Shown: positions 17,172 to 25,597 of the stretch, piece by piece
Layout: each line of letters opens with the position of its first letter
How positions within the stretch are numbered: the stretch's first letter is position 1
Assembly: GCA_902780535.1 (NCBI GenBank)
Contig: CACZFT010000009.1
Location: 10,900 to 74,899 of the forward strand
Direction: 5' to 3'
DNA: 64,000 bases
DNA from: an uncultured Selenomonas sp.
GTDB taxonomy: Bacteria > Bacillota > Negativicutes > Selenomonadales > Selenomonadaceae
The notes under the pieces: generated by a model
Told to the model about the DNA's origin: nothing
What the model saw: the letters and a program-made list of their open reading frames with translations, nothing else
Database searches by the model: none
Position numbers and translations under genes: made by a program

Positions 17172-18572
17172 TTATTCGTTGAAGAAGCAGGAAAGATCCT
17201 CGATGTAGTTCGGACGCGCTGCCCAATCGTAAGAAACGCTGACGGCTTCGCCTTTGGCCGCCGTCACTTGCAGAACGTCCGTTGCATCGCGGTACTTCCA
17301 CTTCGCACTCGCGGGCTTGACCGAGATCGTCTCCACTTTTGCGTGATGCTCGAGCTTGTAGCTCTGCGTCTCGCCCGTGCCTGTGCCGAGTGCTGCATCT
17401 TTGACGCTGCCGGTCTTCTGCGTGATGTTGACGCGCACGCAGCCGATCGGGCCGCGCAGGTCGCTGTCCTTCGTCGCGATGTAATCGAACTGGTCAAAAA
17501 CGAGGTTGTTGTCTTGCTTGTCCGGGTACTGCGTGTCGTGCGTCATCGCCTGGAACTGCTCCGCTGTCCAGCCGTAGATGTAGTCTGCCGTCACCTGCCC
17601 GTCGTTCGGCGAGTAGGAGTACTTCGAGGCCGCCTGCTTCACGCCGTCAAAGTAGAGCGCGAAGCCGTGCGACGCGAGGCCGTCCGTATGCTTGAGCGTG
17701 TACGTGTGCGCTGTGCCGTCGCCCGTGCCGAGCACCTCGCCCGTGACGTTTGTCGTCGGCTTGCGGAGAGAAATCTCCGCGGAAAACTCCGTATCCTGTA
17801 CAACTGGATGCTTGAGAATGAGGTGCGCGCGGTTGATGTTGTTGACGAAGTTGTACGTCTTGCTGATGCAGACGCCGGTGCCCTCCGTGAATACCGCTAC
17901 GCTGTCCGTGCGATGCTTAATCGTGACGCTGTTGACCTTCGCCGTGCTGCTGCCGATCGTCGGCGCTGAGAGCACGTACTTGAAGCGGATCGCCTGCGCT
18001 TTTGTTGCCGGGTTGGTGACATAAGAGCTGTAGTCCGCATAGTCCGTCCACGTGTCGCCGCTGATGTTTGCCGATGCGAGAACCGTCGCGGTTCCGCCGC
18101 CGTCTTCGGTTTTGTCAACGTCGATGGACAGGATTTCCACCGGCTCAGTGCTGAGCGTGACGGTATCACTAAAAAGCGTCTCCGTCGTTACAGTCGCGCC
18201 GCTTTCGCCGTTGAAGGTGATTGACGATACGGACGGGGCTTCTGCCGCTGTCTCGTCCATCTTCATCGCGATTGCTACGTCAACTTTCTTTCCCGCGAAG
18301 GCGGCGAGCTTGCTGCTATCAAGTGCCGTGAGCTCTGCCTGCGTATTTCCCTCGCTCAAGAGCGAGGCGGCCGTGATGCCCTGCGTCGTCAAGTTCTCCC
18401 ATGCGGCTGACGAGGTGTTGTACCTTTGCCAGTTTTCAGCGTACTTGAACGCGTACCTGATGTCGCAACCGTCCGGCACGGTCGCCGTGATCGAGATCGC
18501 GTTTTCGCTCTGCGCATTCGTGCAATCAATCTGACTTGCTGTGGTCGTCGTGATGAGTGCTGTTCTTGCCAT
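17172..18572 (-). CDS. tail-fibre/host-specificity-like structural protein
   Basis: 466 aa, Thr/Ser/Val-rich beta-type composition. Carries two LGTG(D/T)G..(T/S)Y.L(K/E)H modules of the kind that start many phage host-specificity domains. Located in the fibre module. Confidence 0.55.
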   Translation of the reverse strand: MARTALITTTTASQIDCTNAQSENAISITATVPDGCDIRYAFKYAENWQRYNTSSAAWENLTTQGITAASLLSEGNTQAELTALDSSKLAAFAGKKVDVAIAMKMDETAAEAPSVSSITFNGESGATVTTETLFSDTVTLSTEPVEILSIDVDKTEDGGGTATVLASANISGDTWTDYADYSSYVTNPATKAQAIRFKYVLSAPTIGSSTAKVNSVTIKHRTDSVAVFTEGTGVCISKTYNFVNNINRAHLILKHPVVQDTEFSAEISLRKPTTNVTGEVLGTGDGTAHTYTLKHTDGLASHGFALYFDGVKQAASKYSYSPNDGQVTADYIYGWTAEQFQAMTHDTQYPDKQDNNLVFDQFDYIATKDSDLRGPIGCVRVNITQKTGSVKDAALGTGTGETQSYKLEHHAKVETISVKPASAKWKYRDATDVLQVTAAKGEAVSVSYDWAARPNYIEDLSCFFNE

Positions 18573-19656
18573 GCTGCTTTTCCTCCTCTTTCTTCGGTGT
18601 CCTTGTGAGCACCAATCTGTTAAGTGTTGCCTGCACCGTTACGTAGGCATTGCAGTGCTTGCAATAACCAAGGAACGATGCGACGCTCTGCCGAGCATCT
18701 TCTACTCTGATTTCTCCGCGCCGGAATTTGCGCGAAAGCCGCTGAAACCTCTTCTTCGCCGCTTTGATGTTCCGCTTGCGCGGAAGGATATGCGTTGACC
18801 ATGTTCGGTATCCGCAAAAATCTACGCCCTGCGACGCTTGGTAAATGCGCGTCTTCGGGTTCAACTCGAGCTTGAGCTGCGTTTCCAAAAACCAGCGGAT
18901 GTCATCGAGGTTTTTCCTTAGCTCTTTCTTGCTATTTGATACGATGACAAAATCATCCATGTACCTGATGTAAAAATGAGCTTTCATGCATTCTTTTACA
19001 AAATGGTCAAACGGGTTCAGATAAATGTTCGCCGCCAGTTGGCTTGTCAATGCTCCGATAGGGATCCCTTTCCCGGTGTCTTCGTTAAATCGGTCAATGA
19101 CAAGTCCCCACGCTTCCAGCAGTCGCTTGTCTTTGATTGTACGGCTGATTTCTCTTTTTAGGATTTCGTGGTCGATGCTCTGATAATAGTGGTGTATGTC
19201 GCATTGCAGAATATAGACGTTTCCGCTGTGTCTCGCGATCCTCAAAAATTTCTTCACCCTCTGAACCGCTGCATGCGCGCCTTTGCCGAGGATGCACGCG
19301 TAGGAATCGTAGATGTATTTCTTCTCAAAAAGCGGTCTCACGATCCTATCGAGCGAGTGATGAAATATCCGATCGCGGAACGTCGGGGCGTTGATGATCC
19401 GCCGCTTCACTTCTGTTCTGCACTCAAATTCGTAGTATGTCTGTGGCTGCCATGTCCCCGTGTTGAGTTCAAAAATCATCTGATAGATGACCGCCTCAAC
19501 GCGTTTCCCGACACCCATGATCTCGTTTTTGTACCTTCGGCCCCGAGATGCCTCAAGATATGCTGCATACATGTTTTCAAAGTTAACCACTTGTTCCCAA
19601 AGGTTATCGTACCGTATCGTTTTCTTCACCCTTTTCTTATCCGTCCCGCGTGACAT
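18526..19656 (-). CDS. DGR-type reverse transcriptase
   Basis: Contains IPIGALTSQLAANIYL (the DGR-type [ILV]GxxxSQ motif) and IRYMDDFVIVS (YxDD catalytic box). Start placed at the Met of MSRGTDKKRVKK (19656). The track ORF extends further only because the frame stays open across the TR. Confidence 0.85.
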   Translation of the reverse strand: MSRGTDKKRVKKTIRYDNLWEQVVNFENMYAAYLEASRGRRYKNEIMGVGKRVEAVIYQMIFELNTGTWQPQTYYEFECRTEVKRRIINAPTFRDRIFHHSLDRIVRPLFEKKYIYDSYACILGKGAHAAVQRVKKFLRIARHSGNVYILQCDIHHYYQSIDHEILKREISRTIKDKRLLEAWGLVIDRFNEDTGKGIPIGALTSQLAANIYLNPFDHFVKECMKAHFYIRYMDDFVIVSNSKKELRKNLDDIRWFLETQLKLELNPKTRIYQASQGVDFCGYRTWSTHILPRKRNIKAAKKRFQRLSRKFRRGEIRVEDARQSVASFLGYCKHCNAYVTVQATLNRLVLTRTPKKEEEKQHGKNSTHHDDHSKSD

Positions 19657-19775
19657 GGAGGGACGGTGTTGGTATCTGTTTTCCTCGCCTCGCAGCAAGG
19701 ACGGACAAGGCTCCCAAATAATTGGCACTGGAACGGGCCATGGTACTCTGCCCGAACTTCTGGCCGTGATTACCA

Positions 19776-19892
19776 TTTGCGAGCCGGAACCCAATGTTGC
19801 TGTTCGCGTCCGACGCCGAGTTGTTGGCATCGAAGAGGAAGGCCCCAGCACGCGCGCCGTTGTCCCAATTCCCGGAGACGTTCAGCACGTTA
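19776..19892 (-). repeat. DGR template repeat (TR)
   Basis: 117 bp aligning without gaps to 20368-20484. There are 14 mismatches, every one at a T on the plus strand (an A on the coding minus strand). The conceptual translation is Asn-rich (NVLNVSGNWDNGARAGAFLFDANNSASDANSNIGFRLA). Confidence 0.85.
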
Positions 19893-19910
19893 AAGCCTTG
19901 CCCGGTGGCG

Positions 19911-20303
19911 TCATTTCCTCTTCGCTGCCTCTCTTGCTTCGGCGACAGCCTTGAAATGGCGCACAAGACCGCCGAGGATTCTCCCTGCTTCGTCCACCTT
20001 GCTCATCCACACGCCCAAGCGCTTGACAGAGATATAGCCTTCCCGCCGCGCCTGCCGTATGAGCACGCGCAAATACTCAAGCTCAATGTCGATTTCTTGC
20101 AAGGTTGTTTTCTTGTAGAATTTCTTCTCAAACCTGATGATTTCATGCAGCGCTGCATTTACGGTGTTCTCGATTTCCGCGCAAAGCTGGTATCGCTCTT
20201 TCTTCGGAAACTGGAACAAGATCGTATGCGTGTAGTCTTTTACTTCCTCCATTTTCGTCTGCAAAATAAGTGGATTTTTCGCATGGTCGAAATCTACTCC
20301 CAC
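19911..20303 (-). CDS. DGR accessory variability determinant (Avd), four-helix-bundle family
   Basis: 130 aa. Carries the FPKKERYQL...EI.. pattern typical of Avd / 23S-rRNA-intervening-sequence-like four-helix-bundle proteins. Sits between the target gene and the TR. GTG start with an AAAGGAGA RBS. Confidence 0.75.
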   Translation of the reverse strand: MGVDFDHAKNPLILQTKMEEVKDYTHTILFQFPKKERYQLCAEIENTVNAALHEIIRFEKKFYKKTTLQEIDIELEYLRVLIRQARREGYISVKRLGVWMSKVDEAGRILGGLVRHFKAVAEAREAAKRK

Positions 20304-20317
20304 GGTTTCTCCTTTCC

Positions 20318-20335
20318 GCCGCGCTATCGCGCGGC
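20318..20335 (-). promoter_or_regulatory. GC hairpin downstream of VR (DGR target-recognition hairpin candidate)
   Basis: On the minus strand GCCGCGC GATA GCGCGGC: a perfect 7-bp stem with a 4-nt GNRA-type loop, 32 nt beyond the VR 3' end. Confidence 0.6.
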
Positions 20336-20351
20336 TTTCAGTTCACATTGT

Positions 20352-21269
20352 TCAGGATTCTGGGTACTTTGCGAGCCGGAACCCAACGGCGCTGTACGCG
20401 ACCGACGCCGAGAAGTCGGCACCGAAGAGGAAGGCCCCAGCACGCGCGCCGTCGACCCAATCCCCGGAGACGCGCAGCACGTTATCAGAATCGCTATTCG
20501 ACCACACGCCGTCGCTGCCGTAGTTCCCCGCGCCGCTTGTCGTTGTCTTCGGAACGAAAACGTCGTTGAGGTCAAACGATTCTCCGCTTGTCTCCCACAT
20601 GTCCTTGATGATTGCGCCGGATCCTGACGGAACGGTAGCCCCCGTCGTAACATAGGTCTGGTTCCCTTTGTTGTCCCACATTGAAACGGCATAGTTATTA
20701 AATTTCATGCCGTCTACCCACTCATCTACGTTGCCCCAGAATTCATGGATATTTCTCCATACGGCTTTCGTCCCGCCGGTTGCCACGGTCGCGCTCGTCG
20801 ATACGTTGCCGTTATCAATCGCCGTCTGCACGTCGGCTGTGCCGAGCTCAATCATCATGAGCAGAGAGATAGCCGACCGCTCATAGACGTTGTTCAGGTG
20901 CCAACCTGCTTGATCCCCTGTGCCGGTGTTCCGTGCTGCACAGGCAGTTCTTGAGTTGCCAATCGTGATGTTCACCCATGGGCTCTTCCCCGCGAGGGAT
21001 GCAGCTTTGCTGCCGTCAGCGCTCGCTTCGTAGCCCCCGAAGTAGAAACACGGAATTGCCTTTCCTGCCCGCATAAACGCCGGGTGGAGGTGAAAACCAC
21101 TACGCGGCTTGTCGCTGATCCAATAGCATTTCCTCCCCGCCGCCGTCGTACCGTCTGCCGCCTTCCCGACTTTGACGTAAAATGCCGGGATCTTGACCAT
21201 CGCCTGCCCGTCAATCGTAACCGACTGAATGTCGCTCCACGGATAAATCGCGTTGAAATCCACGCTCAT
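20352..21269 (-). CDS. DGR target protein: tail-fibre tip / receptor-binding protein with C-type-lectin (FGE-like) fold
   Basis: 305 aa. C-terminus ...NVLRVSGDWVDGARAGAFLFGADFSASVAYSAVGFRLAKYPES carries the VR. The WG.V.EW / GG.W pattern suggests a lectin fold. Start overlaps the upstream fibre gene stop (ATGA). Confidence 0.8.
   Translation of the reverse strand: MSVDFNAIYPWSDIQSVTIDGQAMVKIPAFYVKVGKAADGTTAAGRKCYWISDKPRSGFHLHPAFMRAGKAIPCFYFGGYEASADGSKAASLAGKSPWVNITIGNSRTACAARNTGTGDQAGWHLNNVYERSAISLLMMIELGTADVQTAIDNGNVSTSATVATGGTKAVWRNIHEFWGNVDEWVDGMKFNNYAVSMWDNKGNQTYVTTGATVPSGSGAIIKDMWETSGESFDLNDVFVPKTTTSGAGNYGSDGVWSNSDSDNVLRVSGDWVDGARAGAFLFGADFSASVAYSAVGFRLAKYPES
20368..20484 (-). repeat. 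DGR variable repeat (VR)
   Basis: Cognate of the TR. Lies in the last about 130 nt of the target ORF and ends 13 nt before its stop codon. Confidence 0.85.
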
Positions 21270-22195
21270 GCCAGTGCATCTCCTTCCTCATCTACCTGCT
21301 TCCACGTGCCGCCGTCATCCGACATGAGCGCCACGCCAATGACGCGTCCGCCGATGATGACCTTGCCATCCGAAACTTCCGCTCCGTCGAGAGACAGCCC
21401 GTCAGCGCTGCTCAGATTGAGCGTCGACGTGATGCTCTTTTTGGTGTTGCTGCCGCTAAACGTATCGGTGCCGTTGATATCCTGCGTAGAAGTGTTCCCG
21501 CCGCCATACGCTCGCCCATTGTAGATCGCGATGGACGAGCGGTAGAGCTTCGTCCTCCCCTCTGTGTACTGATTCTTGACGTTCTCGTAGAGCACGACGC
21601 GCTTGATGCTGCCGGAGACGTTGATGCTCTTGACTTGCACTTCCTCTGTTTTCTCTCCGTCGGTGAGCTGGTAATGTGCGCCGATGATGAGGTTCGAGCT
21701 GTCCTCCACGTCGATGCTGTCGTCTCCCGAGACGACGGATTTGACTGTGACGACCGTCTGATCGATTTCGTCCGCGCCGTCCGAGAAAGTCTCAAAGAGC
21801 GCGTTGTCGTAGCCGTCCGGGTCGATGCCCGCCGCCTGGATGTCTTGATAGAGATTGCCGACAAGGCGCTCTAAGTGGTTGATGCGGCTATTCTGACTGC
21901 CCGCGTCGAGCGCTTTGATCATCGCTACGATCTCGTTGTACTTGTCGTTGCCGCCGATGGCTGCAACGTCGGCTTTGAGCGCTTCGAGCTTGGCTTTAAG
22001 CCATTCGGTACGGTTGGCCAACCCCTGCGCGGGCAGGTTGTCGACGCCGTTTCGCCCGCCGATGATGTAGTCGTTTGCTTCGAGCTGGTAGATGCCCGGC
22101 ACCCATTCCGGGTTGACTGGCAGATGGTTGATTTCATGCCGTGCTCCGTCGCCGTCCGACGCCGGGCCGAAACCGATGTAATCATTTTCGTTCAT
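21266..22195 (-). CDS. tail fibre protein
   Basis: 309 aa. The N-terminal segment ...NHLPVNPEWVPGIYQLE..D...GG..GVDNLPAQGLANRTEWLK resembles the conserved N-termini of myophage fibre proteins. Confidence 0.65.
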   Translation of the reverse strand: MNENDYIGFGPASDGDGARHEINHLPVNPEWVPGIYQLEANDYIIGGRNGVDNLPAQGLANRTEWLKAKLEALKADVAAIGGNDKYNEIVAMIKALDAGSQNSRINHLERLVGNLYQDIQAAGIDPDGYDNALFETFSDGADEIDQTVVTVKSVVSGDDSIDVEDSSNLIIGAHYQLTDGEKTEEVQVKSINVSGSIKRVVLYENVKNQYTEGRTKLYRSSIAIYNGRAYGGGNTSTQDINGTDTFSGSNTKKSITSTLNLSSADGLSLDGAEVSDGKVIIGGRVIGVALMSDDGGTWKQVDEEGDALA

Positions 22196-22212: not shown

Positions 22213-22650
22213 TTAGAAATGCAGGATCCAGTAGCCCTTGATCTGGATGTCATCCTCTTTCTCGATGAGCCCTGTCCTGACGCGATGGGAAAACATCGTC
22301 CCGTCCGCGCAAAAAAGCCCGAACTCATGGATCTTGAGGCCGTTGGCTTGTGAGTTATCAATCAAAAAGTCGAAGCGTGCATCGCGGCCGTCGACGGTCG
22401 CCGATGTGAGCGGGAAAAGCTGTTGCCCCTCGAGCTCCGTATCATCTGCCGCCTCTGCTGTGCTGCCACTGCCAACACCGATCTTGGTGATACAAGATCC
22501 GCTTTTCCCGGCCGCCAGCTCCGCGAGGCGGATGCGCCCCGCATCCACGACAAGGTTGTGATCGTCGATGCGGTCGATGATTTTCCCGTCCTTGTAGACG
22601 GCGAGGTGAAAGTCGCCTCTACAAGGCTTTGTACTGTCTTGAAATACCAT
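22213..22650 (-). CDS. tail-collar fibre-like protein
   Basis: Start moved to MVFQD (RBS AAAGGAGG 8 nt upstream). The VVDAGRIRLAELAAG...ITKIGVGSGSTAEAADDTELE pattern resembles the tail-collar fibre N-terminal domain. Confidence 0.5.
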   Translation of the reverse strand: MVFQDSTKPCRGDFHLAVYKDGKIIDRIDDHNLVVDAGRIRLAELAAGKSGSCITKIGVGSGSTAEAADDTELEGQQLFPLTSATVDGRDARFDFLIDNSQANGLKIHEFGLFCADGTMFSHRVRTGLIEKEDDIQIKGYWILHF

Positions 22651-24139
22651 GCGTGTTGCCTCCTTTGTCATGTGTCGTCTTGCCGGAGCGGATGAGACTG
22701 CCATCGTGGGCGAGGTGGAAGCCGCCCGCCCTGTTGATGCTGCCGCTCCGTGTCCTGCATTTGATGATCTCTATGCCGCCGCTCTCGTATGCCGTCGCTG
22801 TCATGCCGCGCGTGCAGCTGCCATCTCTGCGAGCGCTGCCGCTGTAGGTCAGGCGCTGCCGCAGGCTGTCTGCGAAGCTGCTGAGACTTGCCGCCATGCT
22901 GGCGGTCTCCCGCGCAGCCCCGCAGATGTCGTCGAGCTCTGGGTATTTGAGCCGCAGCGGTGCCTCTTTCTTCGGTCTCCTGATGCCGCGCCCGCCGCTG
23001 ACGGCGTCGTGTATGACGTCGATACGGCGCTTGGTGCCGCCGCCGTCCCGCCGGAACATACAGTTGCGGCGTATCGAGCCGTCGTGCAGGTTGATGTCTC
23101 CGCCGTCGCGCCGGATGCGCCCGTTGCGCTGGCGGGCTCTCGTAATCGTCAGGGCACCGCCGGAATCTACCGGATGCGACGTAAGGCCATGTCTGCCATT
23201 ACCATCGCGCTTCGCAACGCTGTTGCGTGGCAGGTAGTCGTCGAGCGTGTCCTCAAACGTCGCTGCGTCGTCTTTGGCGAGCGTGATGAGCAGGGCGGAG
23301 AAATCTTCCATCTGTGCCGAGTACTCGATCCTCCACGGCTTTTCTCCGCGCCGCATGAGCCGCCCGTCGTGTTGCAGCGTGCCGTCTCGCGTCGCTTTGC
23401 CATCGCTCCGAAAGATATAGTCGATGTGCTTCCCCCATCGCGGTACCGCGGTTGCATCGAAGCCACAACGCGCGAGCGTGCCATCTCGGATGTGCTCTGC
23501 TTTGCGGCAGATCGTGCCGCCGCGTATGCGCGCGCCGTCGTGTTTATCTGCTTTGATGGGGATGCCATAGGGCACGTCGTCACTCAAGCTAAACAGCGAG
23601 GCCGCCCAGAAATCTAAATCATGGACGTTCTCGCTTTCATCATCTCGAAAACTGAGCGTGAAGTTCAGCATATCGAGCCACGATCGCACGTTCTTCATGC
23701 GCTCGATTGCTCGGCGCATATCAGACACGCTCTCGCGCGTGATGCTGGCATTTTCTACCGTAACGCGAAAACGGTACGGCTCCCCACCGTACTCAAACCA
23801 CTCTTGCACGCTTGCGCCCGCGCCGAAGATCGTCGCAACGACTTCTTCCACAACCGCAGCCGTACCTTTTCTGATATGCCAGGGCACACTCTTTTTTACT
23901 ATCTGCCGCCTGATATCAAGCGGCAGACTCGTGTCATAGACATCGCAATGGAACTGGATGGCGAGCGCGTCAACCAGACGGCTTGACAGCTTATCAATAT
24001 GCGGGTAGAGATTGACAATCTCTGAGAGCGCATCAATCTTTCTGAGCGCCTTATCGACGGTCTTTGCTATCTCATGCATATTGCCTGTGTCAAGGGACTC
24101 CGGCAGACTGTCGTTGATGCGGTACTCTTTGTCTTGCAT
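22619..24139 (-). CDS. baseplate protein gpI-like (P2 tail protein I family) with long repeat-rich C-terminal extension
   Basis: The N-terminal about 170 aa (LPESL...ALAIQFHCDVYD...RRQIVKKSVPWHRKGT) matches the tail-protein-I pattern. The remaining about 330 aa carries many R/H-x-D/N-G repeats. Confidence 0.65.
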   Translation of the reverse strand: MQDKEYRINDSLPESLDTGNMHEIAKTVDKALRKIDALSEIVNLYPHIDKLSSRLVDALAIQFHCDVYDTSLPLDIRRQIVKKSVPWHIRKGTAAVVEEVVATIFGAGASVQEWFEYGGEPYRFRVTVENASITRESVSDMRRAIERMKNVRSWLDMLNFTLSFRDDESENVHDLDFWAASLFSLSDDVPYGIPIKADKHDGARIRGGTICRKAEHIRDGTLARCGFDATAVPRWGKHIDYIFRSDGKATRDGTLQHDGRLMRRGEKPWRIEYSAQMEDFSALLITLAKDDAATFEDTLDDYLPRNSVAKRDGNGRHGLTSHPVDSGGALTITRARQRNGRIRRDGGDINLHDGSIRRNCMFRRDGGGTKRRIDVIHDAVSGGRGIRRPKKEAPLRLKYPELDDICGAARETASMAASLSSFADSLRQRLTYSGSARRDGSCTRGMTATAYESGGIEIIKCRTRSGSINRAGGFHLAHDGSLIRSGKTTHDKGGNTHGISRQYKAL

Positions 24140-25281
24140 CAGTCCTCCCTCCCTGTCATCCTCACGCTCACGGCATTTGCCTGCGCCACCTCCACTCTTT
24201 GCTCCGGGTTTAGCTTATTGCTGTCTCTGCCGACGGAGGTGTAAGCAGGGCTTTTTACAACAACATGGCGCGTACCCGAGACGGCTTTGATGCGCCGCAC
24301 AAGCTCCGATGGATCAATGTCCCTGTTGAGCCGTGCGCCCTGCCACGCTACGTACGCCTGCACTGCTGCAGCTACATTTTTCTGCGTCGTCGCCGCATCG
24401 GCATCTCCGTCGATGTAATACGATACGTCGATGTCATACGGCACCACCGCGGGCGCTACAACCTCTACTTTATCCGTCAGCGGGCGCACGTCTTTCGCCG
24501 AAAGTGCTTTGTCTACGATACCGAGCATCTCCGCCTCCGGCACGATACCGCCTGCCAAGAGAAAGCATACCTGCACGACTCCAGGGCTCGGCGACCAAAC
24601 GCAGACGTCATCTATCGACGCGTTTGCTGACTTTGTGTGGTATTCGTACGCGCCCGATGGGCCTGCCGTCGAGAATCTTTCCGGCGCTTCAAAGGCTCGT
24701 TCTCTCAGCGCATCATCCGTCTCCGCCTCACTGCCACCTTCGCTCTTTGTCGTATTCACAGCGCTTTCTATGTAGGCGATAGGATCGACAATCTTGGCAA
24801 TCTCTCCTGCCTGGTAACCGTTGCCAGCCTCTCCCATCTGCTCGCATGTAGCCGCTACGTCTCCCGTCGTCTCTCCCGGCGGTATGAGCAAGTCTGTGTT
24901 TGTTGCAAAGTATACGTTGTTTTCCGGCGATACGCGCGTCCCGCGCGGGATCAGCGTCGCCGTGTCGCGCGCCGCCGACAATTTGATGTGAAGTGTCGTC
25001 ACAGCAGCACTCGCCGGGATGCGCGTCGTGCAGACATTTGCCGCGAGTGCATCGAGGTTTTCTCCTTCCGCCGTGCGCAAGAGGTTCTGTCTGCCTGCGT
25101 AGTTGATCTTATTGATGATGCGGTAGATGACCTCTGACTCAAACAGCAAAAAGAGGCGCACAGGATCCGCCATGCCAGGCGTGCGCCCCGTGAAGTCTTT
25201 GTAGCAGTCAAGGACGGCTGTCTCCACCTCTTCTACCGTAACATCCACAAGATTGATTTCCGGCATGTCAGCCAACTTCAT
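24139..25281 (-). CDS. baseplate protein J-like
   Basis: 380 aa. Position and sequence pattern match the P2 gpJ / Mu gp47 family. Confidence 0.8.
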   Translation of the reverse strand: MKLADMPEINLVDVTVEEVETAVLDCYKDFTGRTPGMADPVRLFLLFESEVIYRIINKINYAGRQNLLRTAEGENLDALAANVCTTRIPASAAVTTLHIKLSAARDTATLIPRGTRVSPENNVYFATNTDLLIPPGETTGDVAATCEQMGEAGNGYQAGEIAKIVDPIAYIESAVNTTKSEGGSEAETDDALRERAFEAPERFSTAGPSGAYEYHTKSANASIDDVCVWSPSPGVVQVCFLLAGGIVPEAEMLGIVDKALSAKDVRPLTDKVEVVAPAVVPYDIDVSYYIDGDADAATTQKNVAAAVQAYVAWQGARLNRDIDPSELVRRIKAVSGTRHVVVKSPAYTSVGRDSNKLNPEQRVEVAQANAVSVRMTGRED

Positions 25282-25597
25282 TGATGCTCACCTCCACCGT
25301 CGGGACGAGCCGTCCGGAAGCGTCTCCAGAAAATGAAATCTTCTCGATCCGGGCGCGTGGCTCGTAGTGACGAATCGCAGTAAAAATCTCGTTTGTGAGA
25401 AAAGCCTGCGCCTGCGGCATCGGCAGGTCGATTACACTGCCGTCGATGCCGAACGCTCTGTCGAGCGGGATCTGGCATTTGATGGTTGTCAGCAACGTCC
25501 TGACATTCTGCAAGACCTCTTCAGCGACGCTTGCCGGGGCGATGTTGATGCTCTTCGGCGGCCCTGTTGCCGTGACTCTGTAACTCACGCTGCACAC
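25268..25597 (-). CDS. baseplate wedge protein gpW/gp25-like
   Basis: 109 aa. IPLDRAFGIDGSVIDLP...TAIRHYEPRA pattern of the gp25/gpW lysozyme-like family. Confidence 0.75.
   Translation of the reverse strand: MCSVSYRVTATGPPKSINIAPASVAEEVLQNVRTLLTTIKCQIPLDRAFGIDGSVIDLPMPQAQAFLTNEIFTAIRHYEPRARIEKISFSGDASGRLVPTVEVSINEVG

Follow-up and report, generated by a model that had tools for sequence, protein, structure and literature searches.

The 64-kb window analysed here (64,000 nt of contig CACZFT010000009.1, assembly GCA_902780535.1, from an uncultured Selenomonas sp.) contains a complete diversity-generating retroelement (DGR) that lies within the tail-fibre module of a prophage. The element consists of a target gene whose 3' end carries a variable repeat (VR), an accessory gene (avd), a template repeat (TR) and a reverse transcriptase (RT) gene, all read from the minus strand. 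The genes, repeats and RT motifs are located as follows, with all positions given in window coordinates:

20352..21269, minus strand: target gene, encoding a 305-aa variable tail protein with a C-terminal VR (PHROG 5302, AlphaFold2, Foldseek)
20368..20484, minus strand: VR, encoding target residues 263-301 of 305
19911..20303, minus strand: avd (accessory variability determinant), 130 aa, between VR and TR, with a GTG start and AGGAG ahead of it
19776..19892, minus strand: TR, 117 nt (repeat search and mismatch table)
18526..19656, minus strand: DGR reverse transcriptase, 376 aa (PDB, PHROG, Pfam RVT_1)
19393-19407, minus strand: RT motif KRRII, equivalent of R74 of bRT, the RT of Bordetella phage BPP-1
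19039-19059, minus strand: RT motif IGALTSQ
18952-18963, minus strand: RT catalytic box YMDD

The repeat search recovers a 117-nt direct repeat without gaps (19776-19892 and 20368-20484, 88% identity, spacing 592), which reproduces at identical coordinates the alignment proposed in the initial annotation of this DNA. On the coding (minus) strand, where the TR is composed of 24 A, 35 C, 36 G and 22 T, the two copies differ at 14 positions, and all 14 are TR adenines (14 of the 24 altered), replaced in the VR by G seven times, by T five times and by C twice. None of the 93 non-A sites is mismatched on realignment, in exact agreement with the earlier tabulation, and the hypergeometric probability of 14 mismatches being confined to 24 adenines is approximately 4e-12. 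All 14 changes fall at codon position 1 or 2 of the open reading frame (ORF) 20352-21269(-), and the VR occupies the extreme C-terminus of its product, as had been described; the TR pseudo-peptide and the VR peptide reported with it are also correct on re-reading. A scan with the TR in which A positions were ignored revealed no further VR-like copy in the 64-kb window.

In order to describe natural variation at this locus, we used the 90%-identity cluster of the target, which has 112 members, and compared the DNA of 13 loci (L001-L013) representing eight target alleles. The TR shows 0-4 changes across the 13 loci, all of them at non-A sites; the window TR is the same as that of L001-L004 and has 2-4 non-A differences from the TRs of loci with other alleles. 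When each VR is compared with its own TR, 10-14 adenines differ in each allele. Where a TR has non-A variants (positions 51 and 54, as well as positions 5 and 24 in L010), its own VR furthermore has them too, which is a prediction of information transfer from TR to VR. Mean pairwise differences per site are distributed very unevenly over the locus:

VR, A-templated sites: 0.554 (8 alleles)
VR, other sites: 0.015 (8 alleles)
TR: 0.010
flanking genes: 0.02-0.06

Variation is seen at 19 of the 24 adenines (TR index 10-97); of the constant ones, two lie at the 5' edge and three occupy the final 3 nt. Comparison of L005/L006 with L009 is especially informative, as none of 4,937 flanking nucleotides differ between them and 11 of the 117 VR nucleotides do, 10 of these at A-sites. 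More generally, sister prophages have 0-6 flank differences in 4.9 kb versus 11-17 VR differences. Since the VRs have diverged on identical or near-identical flanks, the lineage must have been active very recently, and the pattern indicates that this DGR lineage has been diversifying until very recent times. The hypervariable VR expected in the initial annotation is thus seen in related genomes, where the eight alleles vary at the VR and the TR stays constant, the opposite of an invariant VR paired with a varying TR.

The diversified VR core corresponds to 20387-20474 (TR index 10-97, 88 nt). Its 19 variable adenines are distributed over 12 codons (seven AAY, three GAY, one AGC and one ATT), giving 2.75e11 reachable variants at the DNA level and 1.75e11 at the protein level. 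As the adenines of the diversified part are confined to the first two codon positions, mutagenesis cannot create a stop codon.

Two annotation peculiarities were noted within this dataset. The TR sits within a 109-aa ORF (window 19637-19966, minus strand) in the VR reading frame, which is called as a gene in some relatives (83-109 aa in L003, L005, L008 and L009); this ORF is most likely spurious, a product of the protein-like sequence of the TR. The target cluster (P0001/P0076) also lists 130-aa sequences of the neighbouring Avd (P0081, P0083, P0085 and P0086), presumably owing to a clustering artefact such as a bridging fused gene call.

The proteins encoded next to the repeats belong to known DGR families. 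The 130-aa product of the gene between the repeats, previously described as Avd-like, scores above the cut-offs of both Pfam PF22296 bAvd (89.9 bits, cut-off 40) and the NCBIfam equivalog NF033474 DivGenRetAVD (85.4 bits, cut-off 80), and matches PHROG 3206 'Avd protein of DGR' (2.5e-29); it has no match among PDB sequences. The RT downstream, in which both the IGALTSQ and YMDD motifs reported earlier were located, matches PHROG 1423 (5.6e-118) and Pfam RVT_1, and its closest PDB chain is BPP-1 bRT (8ub7, E 2.5e-42), compared with 9e-22 for the best group II RT and approximately 1e-4 for retron RTs. DGR RTs are distinguished by the signature [I/V/L]GxxxSQ rather than QGxxxSP, and residues R74 and I181 of bRT promote adenine mutagenesis (PMC7826257). 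IGALTSQ fits this signature, and in an alignment with bRT the equivalents of both R74 and I181 are conserved.

The same arrangement recurs well beyond the target cluster. Among 40 viral-contig relatives of the RT in IMG/VR, 36 possess an A-biased TR/VR pair in the same layout, and RT relatives at 36-66% identity, which are common there, share the layout. A-biased TR/VR pairs were found in 92 of 120 related loci (92 non-redundant), and a scan of viral contigs with Avd yielded 5 loci.

The target protein is assigned to PHROG 5302 'tail protein' (1.3e-44) and has no match among PDB sequences. Its fold was revealed by structure prediction alone, because the Pfam, NCBIfam and PDB sequence searches were empty. 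The AlphaFold2 model, computed from an alignment of 50 metagenomic homologues, has a pLDDT of 95.8 and a pTM of 0.94. Its top PDB match in Foldseek is TaqVP (5vf4, E 3e-13, TM 0.62), the variable protein of a Thermus aquaticus DGR, and further matches include PvdO, TvpA (2y3c), Mtd (1yu0-4) and formylglycine-generating enzyme (FGE). These models support assignment of the target to the C-type-lectin (CLec/FGE) fold of solved DGR variable proteins, the fold that had been expected from the sequence. The start codon of the target gene and the stop codon of the 309-aa tail-fibre gene upstream of it share nucleotides (ATGA). Homologues of the target in phages are annotated as tail or tail-fibre proteins, one of them as 'BPP-1 Mtd-like', and the FP_Lagaffe 'Mtd-like' protein matches part of the target. 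Scanning viral contigs with the target found nothing, and scanning genome representatives gave a single weak Prevotellaceae match; apparently the GTDB representative of Mitsuokella jalaludinii is without this prophage or the patterns used missed it.

On the minus strand the genes are ordered as baseplate genes (Baseplate_J-like, Tail_P2_I), the 309-aa protein with a tail-fibre N-terminus, target, avd, TR and RT. On the 3' side of the RT there are a conserved 476-aa DUF2460-like protein, small ORFs and an endolysin, so the placement in a prophage tail-fibre module proposed initially agrees with the flanks, which are baseplate and fibre genes before the cassette and lysis genes after it. Genes for the tape measure, tail sheath, major head protein, head protease, portal and both terminase subunits are found farther in the prophage, which is contractile-tailed; its initial description as a lambda-head/P2-tail mosaic is tentative. 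Judging from the cluster mates of the target, which are RefSeq proteins of M. jalaludinii (Selenomonadaceae, Negativicutes, Bacillota), the host is this species, in keeping with the Firmicutes-like host suggested before.

The gene for the 476-aa protein (window 17172-18602, minus strand) is the next one after the RT gene, with whose 3' end it overlaps. Pfam gives the protein only a weak DUF2460 signal and PHROG no match, but it has more than 130 homologues, several of which are named DUF2460 proteins of Selenomonadaceae or Caudoviricetes. It is probably a further tail component, and the avd-TR-RT block would therefore lie between two structural genes.

We also examined the DNA at and beyond the 3' end of the VR, where three features are found:

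20368..20386, minus strand: segment resembling the site of initiation of mutagenic homing (IMH), the 3' constant part of the VR (TTGGGTTCCGGCTCGCAAA), 19 nt, GC-rich, never mutated in 8 alleles
20339..20362, minus strand: degenerate 7-nt-periodic array CCAGAAT/CCTGAAC/AATGTGA/ACTGAAA, with cores CAG, CTG, ATG and CTG
20318..20335, minus strand: target-site hairpin/cruciform GCCGCGC-GATA-GCGCGGC, with a 7-bp all-GC stem, 32 nt after the VR end

The last varying adenine is at TR index 97, and the adenines at index 114-116 are constant in the 8 alleles. The IMH-like segment is the same at the 3' ends of TR and VR, so that IMH and its TR counterpart, IMH*, are identical. Assignment of 20368..20386 as a putative IMH is made by analogy with the systems of Wu et al. 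2018 (PMC5758913), who noted that some DGRs have identical IMH and IMH*, in which case recognition must reach downstream of the repeat. According to Guo et al. 2011 (PMC3240598), phage DGR targets have a hairpin/cruciform 4-34 bp after the VR, in which a GC-rich stem of 7-10 bp carries a GRNA loop of 4 nt. The window hairpin has all of these properties, its GATA loop fitting GRNA, and it is unchanged in 8 of 8 alleles. In relatives the stem sequence changes and the loop class stays; a perfect stem of at least 6 bp with a GRNA loop is present in 41 of the 92 related loci. An alternative role of the hairpin as intrinsic terminator of the target gene was ruled out, as the sense strand has no T-run after it.

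The array between VR and hairpin is not conspicuous in the window itself, where it scores 2, equal to the 99th percentile of background, and is by itself not above background. It becomes apparent from comparison between loci. The first 22 loci contain 33 successive CTG spacings, 32 of which measure 7 or 8 nt, whereas spacings of 7-9 make up 23% in the background. Over the 92 non-redundant loci there are 171 TG pairs at lag 7 versus 20.1+-4.5 in shuffles, with harmonics at lags 14-15, and the array score exceeds the 99th percentile of background windows in 59 of the 92. The unit consensus is W-A-A-T-C-T-G-A/W at 7-8 nt per unit, and in 35 loci the longest chain comprises exactly four units. About 9 nt lie between the VR and the array, and 0-5 nt between the array and the hairpin; the array is clearer than in the window in the 40 nt after the VR of L014-L016, L020, L022, L030, L032, L086, L093, L099, L105 and other loci. 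The 40 nt that follow the TR never contain it (mean score 0.09 versus 2.70 after the VR), and it is missing from more distant DGRs (RT 27-30% identity) as well as from BPP-1.

Because the array is specific to the VR and holds a fixed geometry beside the hairpin, a role in target recognition suggests itself. That it is a previously undescribed cis-element for this process is a tentative proposal, which we regard as somewhat doubtful. Such an element could serve as a binding platform for an oligomeric factor (a complex of Avd pentamer, RT and complementary DNA (cDNA), or a host protein), and it could mark the VR as the recipient where IMH and IMH* are identical. If the proposal is true, the array touches an unsolved step of DGR function, namely how the cDNA finds and enters the VR. 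Searches by keyword, together with Guo 2011, Wu 2018 and the 2026 reconstitution paper, gave no description of the array; this coverage of the literature is incomplete, and an earlier description may exist. Pairing of CAG motifs in the spacer RNA with the CTG repeats was considered and rejected: loci with ATG or GTG cores keep the spacer motif CAGAAG/UCCAG, and there is no covariation.

On the donor side, the RNA between TR and RT was compared with the known BPP-1 structure. Cryo-electron microscopy of the bRT-Avd-RNA complex revealed a stem-loop bound by Avd and located immediately 3' of the TR, a duplex between TR-upstream sequence and spacer positions 59-70 (the 'cPRT Stop'), and after this duplex a short stem-loop and unpaired adenosines (Handa et al., 10.1101/2023.10.23.563531). 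The corresponding predicted elements, named by analogy with that structure and numbered by spacer (Sp) position, are:

19892..19904, minus strand: predicted cPRT-Stop upstream strand (CGGGCAAGGCTTT), 13 nt, the last of which is the first TR base
19657..19775, minus strand: spacer RNA between TR and RT
19724-19765, minus strand: predicted stem-loop Sp11-52 with conserved CAGAAG/UCCAG (alignment and RNAalifold)
19702-19714, minus strand: predicted cPRT-Stop spacer strand Sp62-74 (GGAGCCTTGTCCG), forming a 13-bp contiguous helix with the upstream strand
19682-19701, minus strand: predicted stem-loop Sp75-94 with a GCGA loop
Sp95-97 of the spacer, minus strand: A-run (AAA) after the GCGA stem-loop
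19641-19666, minus strand: predicted 3' stem-loop Sp110-135 (CCGUCCC...GGGACGG), whose loop holds the RT start codon

We used a contiguous-helix test for the upstream:spacer duplex in place of an RNAduplex-style search, which is too permissive to be informative. Over 23 loci, the mean helix between cognate strands is 11.3 bp versus 7.8 bp between non-cognate strands, and none of 20000 permutations reaches the cognate mean. The central 6 nt of the duplex vary between loci and co-vary, and applied to BPP-1 the same test also returns the published duplex. In the stem-loop that immediately follows the TR, 10 of 13 predicted pairs show compensatory changes (RNAalifold, 21 loci). These predictions support the presence of the donor-side RNA elements that cis-primed reverse transcription needs. 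By eye, a primer duplex of 4-5 bp between TR and spacer (TR AUUGG with spacer CCAAU, beside the last mutable A) is plausible; it is too short for statistics and we do not claim it. No obvious Shine-Dalgarno sequence precedes the RT start codon (19654-19656), which lies in the loop of the predicted 3'-most spacer stem-loop; translation of the RT may therefore be coupled to how the DGR RNA is folded.

By homology to BPP-1, the element would work in the following way. The cassette would be transcribed through avd, TR and spacer, and the transcript would fold so that TR-upstream sequence pairs with the spacer as cPRT Stop and spacer stem-loops recruit the RT-Avd complex. The RT would self-prime from the spacer and begin copying the TR about 19 nt before its 3' end, remaining faithful at C, G and U and inserting any nucleotide opposite A. 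The mutagenised cDNA would then take the place of the homologous 88-nt VR core, at the 3' end of the gene for the tail protein. It would be directed there by the GC-rich 3' segment that both repeats share and by VR-specific sequences farther downstream (the array and the GC hairpin with its GRNA loop). In this manner 12 codons (19 adenines) would be randomised on the predicted ligand-binding face of a putative receptor-binding protein of CLec fold, and the stop-free variants would allow the phage to retarget host surface receptors.

We therefore read the element as a functional BPP-1-type DGR in a contractile-tailed temperate phage integrated in M. jalaludinii, with a probability of roughly 0.93, on the basis of the observed repeat pattern, protein identities, fold, cis-elements and natural diversification. 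Several observations weigh against this reading. The target has no match to any Pfam or NCBIfam model, and its receptor-binding role is assigned by homology. The Avd score in NCBIfam, 85.4 bits, is barely over the cut-off of 80, and NCBIfam has no DGR-RT model, so the placement of the RT comes from the PDB and PHROG comparisons. The fold of the single spacer sequence is not significantly more stable than that of shuffled sequences (z = -1.2). Non-A differences between VR and TR number one in L008/L009 and two in L007, with none in six alleles. Finally, the evidence for activity concerns the lineage, as seen in related prophages, rather than the window copy itself, and several independent metagenome samples, with at least 22 contigs between them, contain exactly the target protein and VR allele of the window. 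Recurrence is also seen for alleles P0079 and P0080, on 12 and 10 contigs. It follows from such recurrence across samples that VR alleles are stable during clonal spread of lysogens, and VR diversification is presumably episodic.

That the evidence for activity comes from relatives, and that the window allele recurs, could also be taken to mean that the window cassette is an inactive DGR with a frozen VR, the diversity among its relatives having been produced by ancestral or sister elements. One identical allele in different samples would be expected of such a cassette, within which, moreover, no sigma-70-like promoter was detected. Yet all three ORFs are intact, every cis-element that was tested is present, and the RT conserves both YMDD and the residues for A-mutagenesis. 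The sister prophages, with their 0-6 flank differences as opposed to 11-17 VR differences, and the TR of the window, the same as that of L001-L004 and near-identical to those of loci carrying other alleles, also speak against inactivity, which we consider quite improbable. A rather different explanation is that the repeats are an ordinary pair arising from duplication or gene conversion, diverged by mutation and selection, and that the RT belongs to an unrelated retroelement. The best NCBIfam model for the RT is indeed TIGR04416, the group II intron RT/maturase, followed by weaker Drt and retron matches. All of these are far under their cut-offs, however, with 140 bits against 300 for TIGR04416 and, for example, 55.5 against 235 and 76.9 against 200 among the retron, Drt and AbiA models, and bRT leads the PDB matches by 20 orders of magnitude. 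Rfam gave no match over 18000-21500 at E up to 1, including any group II intron or retron RNA. Neither the RT score nor an intron RNA thus places the element among group II introns, and neither its scores nor its neighbours, which are Avd and tail genes, place it among retron or defence RTs (Drt, AbiA); the grouping with retron or group II RTs that would have argued against the initial annotation is not seen. The A-restricted mismatches (p ~4e-12), repeated independently in 8 alleles and 92 related loci, leave this explanation with hardly any credibility.

It could also be supposed that the DGR works and that its target is something other than a receptor-binding tip, such as a surface or exclusion protein of the lysogen or a non-essential decoration. 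The target is a separate 305-aa protein without a Pfam family, its role in the virion is deduced from position and the PHROG label, and DGR targets in cellular genomes are often non-phage in role. Against this, its start overlaps the stop of the gene with the tail-fibre N-terminal domain, directly after the baseplate genes, its homologues in other phages carry tail or tail-fibre annotations, including the Mtd-like one, and phage DGR clades mostly target tail proteins (Roux et al. 2021). We consider such a role unlikely, and retain the functional phage DGR with a tail-borne target as our reading.

Among known systems, the BPP-1 record shows the same succession of target(VR), avd, TR and RT, as had been recognised when the locus was likened to mtd-avd-TR-brt. 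The two elements also agree in orientation, in Avd family, in having bRT as the closest solved RT, and in the IGxxxSQ motif and R74/I181 equivalents. The TR is of similar size (117 nt here, 134 nt in BPP-1), and the last mutable A is about 19 nt from its 3' end, compared with about 17 nt. The predicted upstream:spacer duplex is at Sp62-74 (Sp59-70 in BPP-1) and is likewise followed by a stem-loop and adenosines; both elements have a GC hairpin with GRNA loop after the VR and a CLec-fold target, predicted in our case, with a C-terminal VR. They differ in that BPP-1 is short-tailed, whereas the present phage has a contractile tail and a host among gut and rumen anaerobes of the Negativicutes, and Mtd is only about 11-12% identical to the 305-aa target in structural alignment. 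The hairpin follows the VR by 4 nt in BPP-1 and by 32 nt here, the gap being filled by the 7-nt-periodic array that BPP-1 lacks; and IMH and IMH* differ in BPP-1, whereas the 3' ends of TR and VR are identical here. TaqVP shares with the target the CLec/FGE-type fold and the C-terminal variable region, but it is 16% identical and comes from a chromosomal DGR, not a phage tail module. The DGRs of gut temperate phages (Bacteroides Hankyphage and Faecalibacterium prophages) are alike in their position in a prophage tail-fibre module, their CLec-fold target and their A-biased TR/VR (PMC6199706, PMC11792537), and phage DGR clades that target CLec-fold tail proteins have already been described in IMG/VR (Roux et al. 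2021).

The element is an ordinary, textbook DGR, in which every defining feature that can be tested in silico is present, and it brings no conceptual change. DGRs of this architecture have been catalogued by the tens of thousands, with gut prophage tail proteins as their best-known targets. The repeat array beside the VR may be the only new element. A megablast search of 50,697 GenBank phage records revealed no near DNA match of the cassette, our literature search found no paper linking Mitsuokella to a DGR, and the supplements of Roux et al. that were searched contain no Mitsuokella or Selenomonad entries. The analysis identifies a putative, hypervariable receptor-binding protein of a Mitsuokella prophage, together with its 12 varying codons and a natural allelic series. 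A cultivable host and identical 3' ends of TR and VR make this a possible experimental system beyond Bordetella, Legionella and Bacteroides, in which the VR-specific array beside the hairpin may bear on the mechanism of cDNA integration.

It is noticeable that two alternative baseplate modules are found upstream of near-identical cassettes (L001 versus L002/L005-L013, locus positions 1-2650, window ~22600-25300). One module encodes a 380-aa Baseplate_J protein and a 506-aa Tail_P2_I protein, the other a 350-376-aa Baseplate_J protein and a 503-508-aa Phage_Mu_Gp48 protein. L002 carries the exact VR allele of the window yet has the other baseplate module, and this module swap indicates recombination just upstream of the fibre genes.

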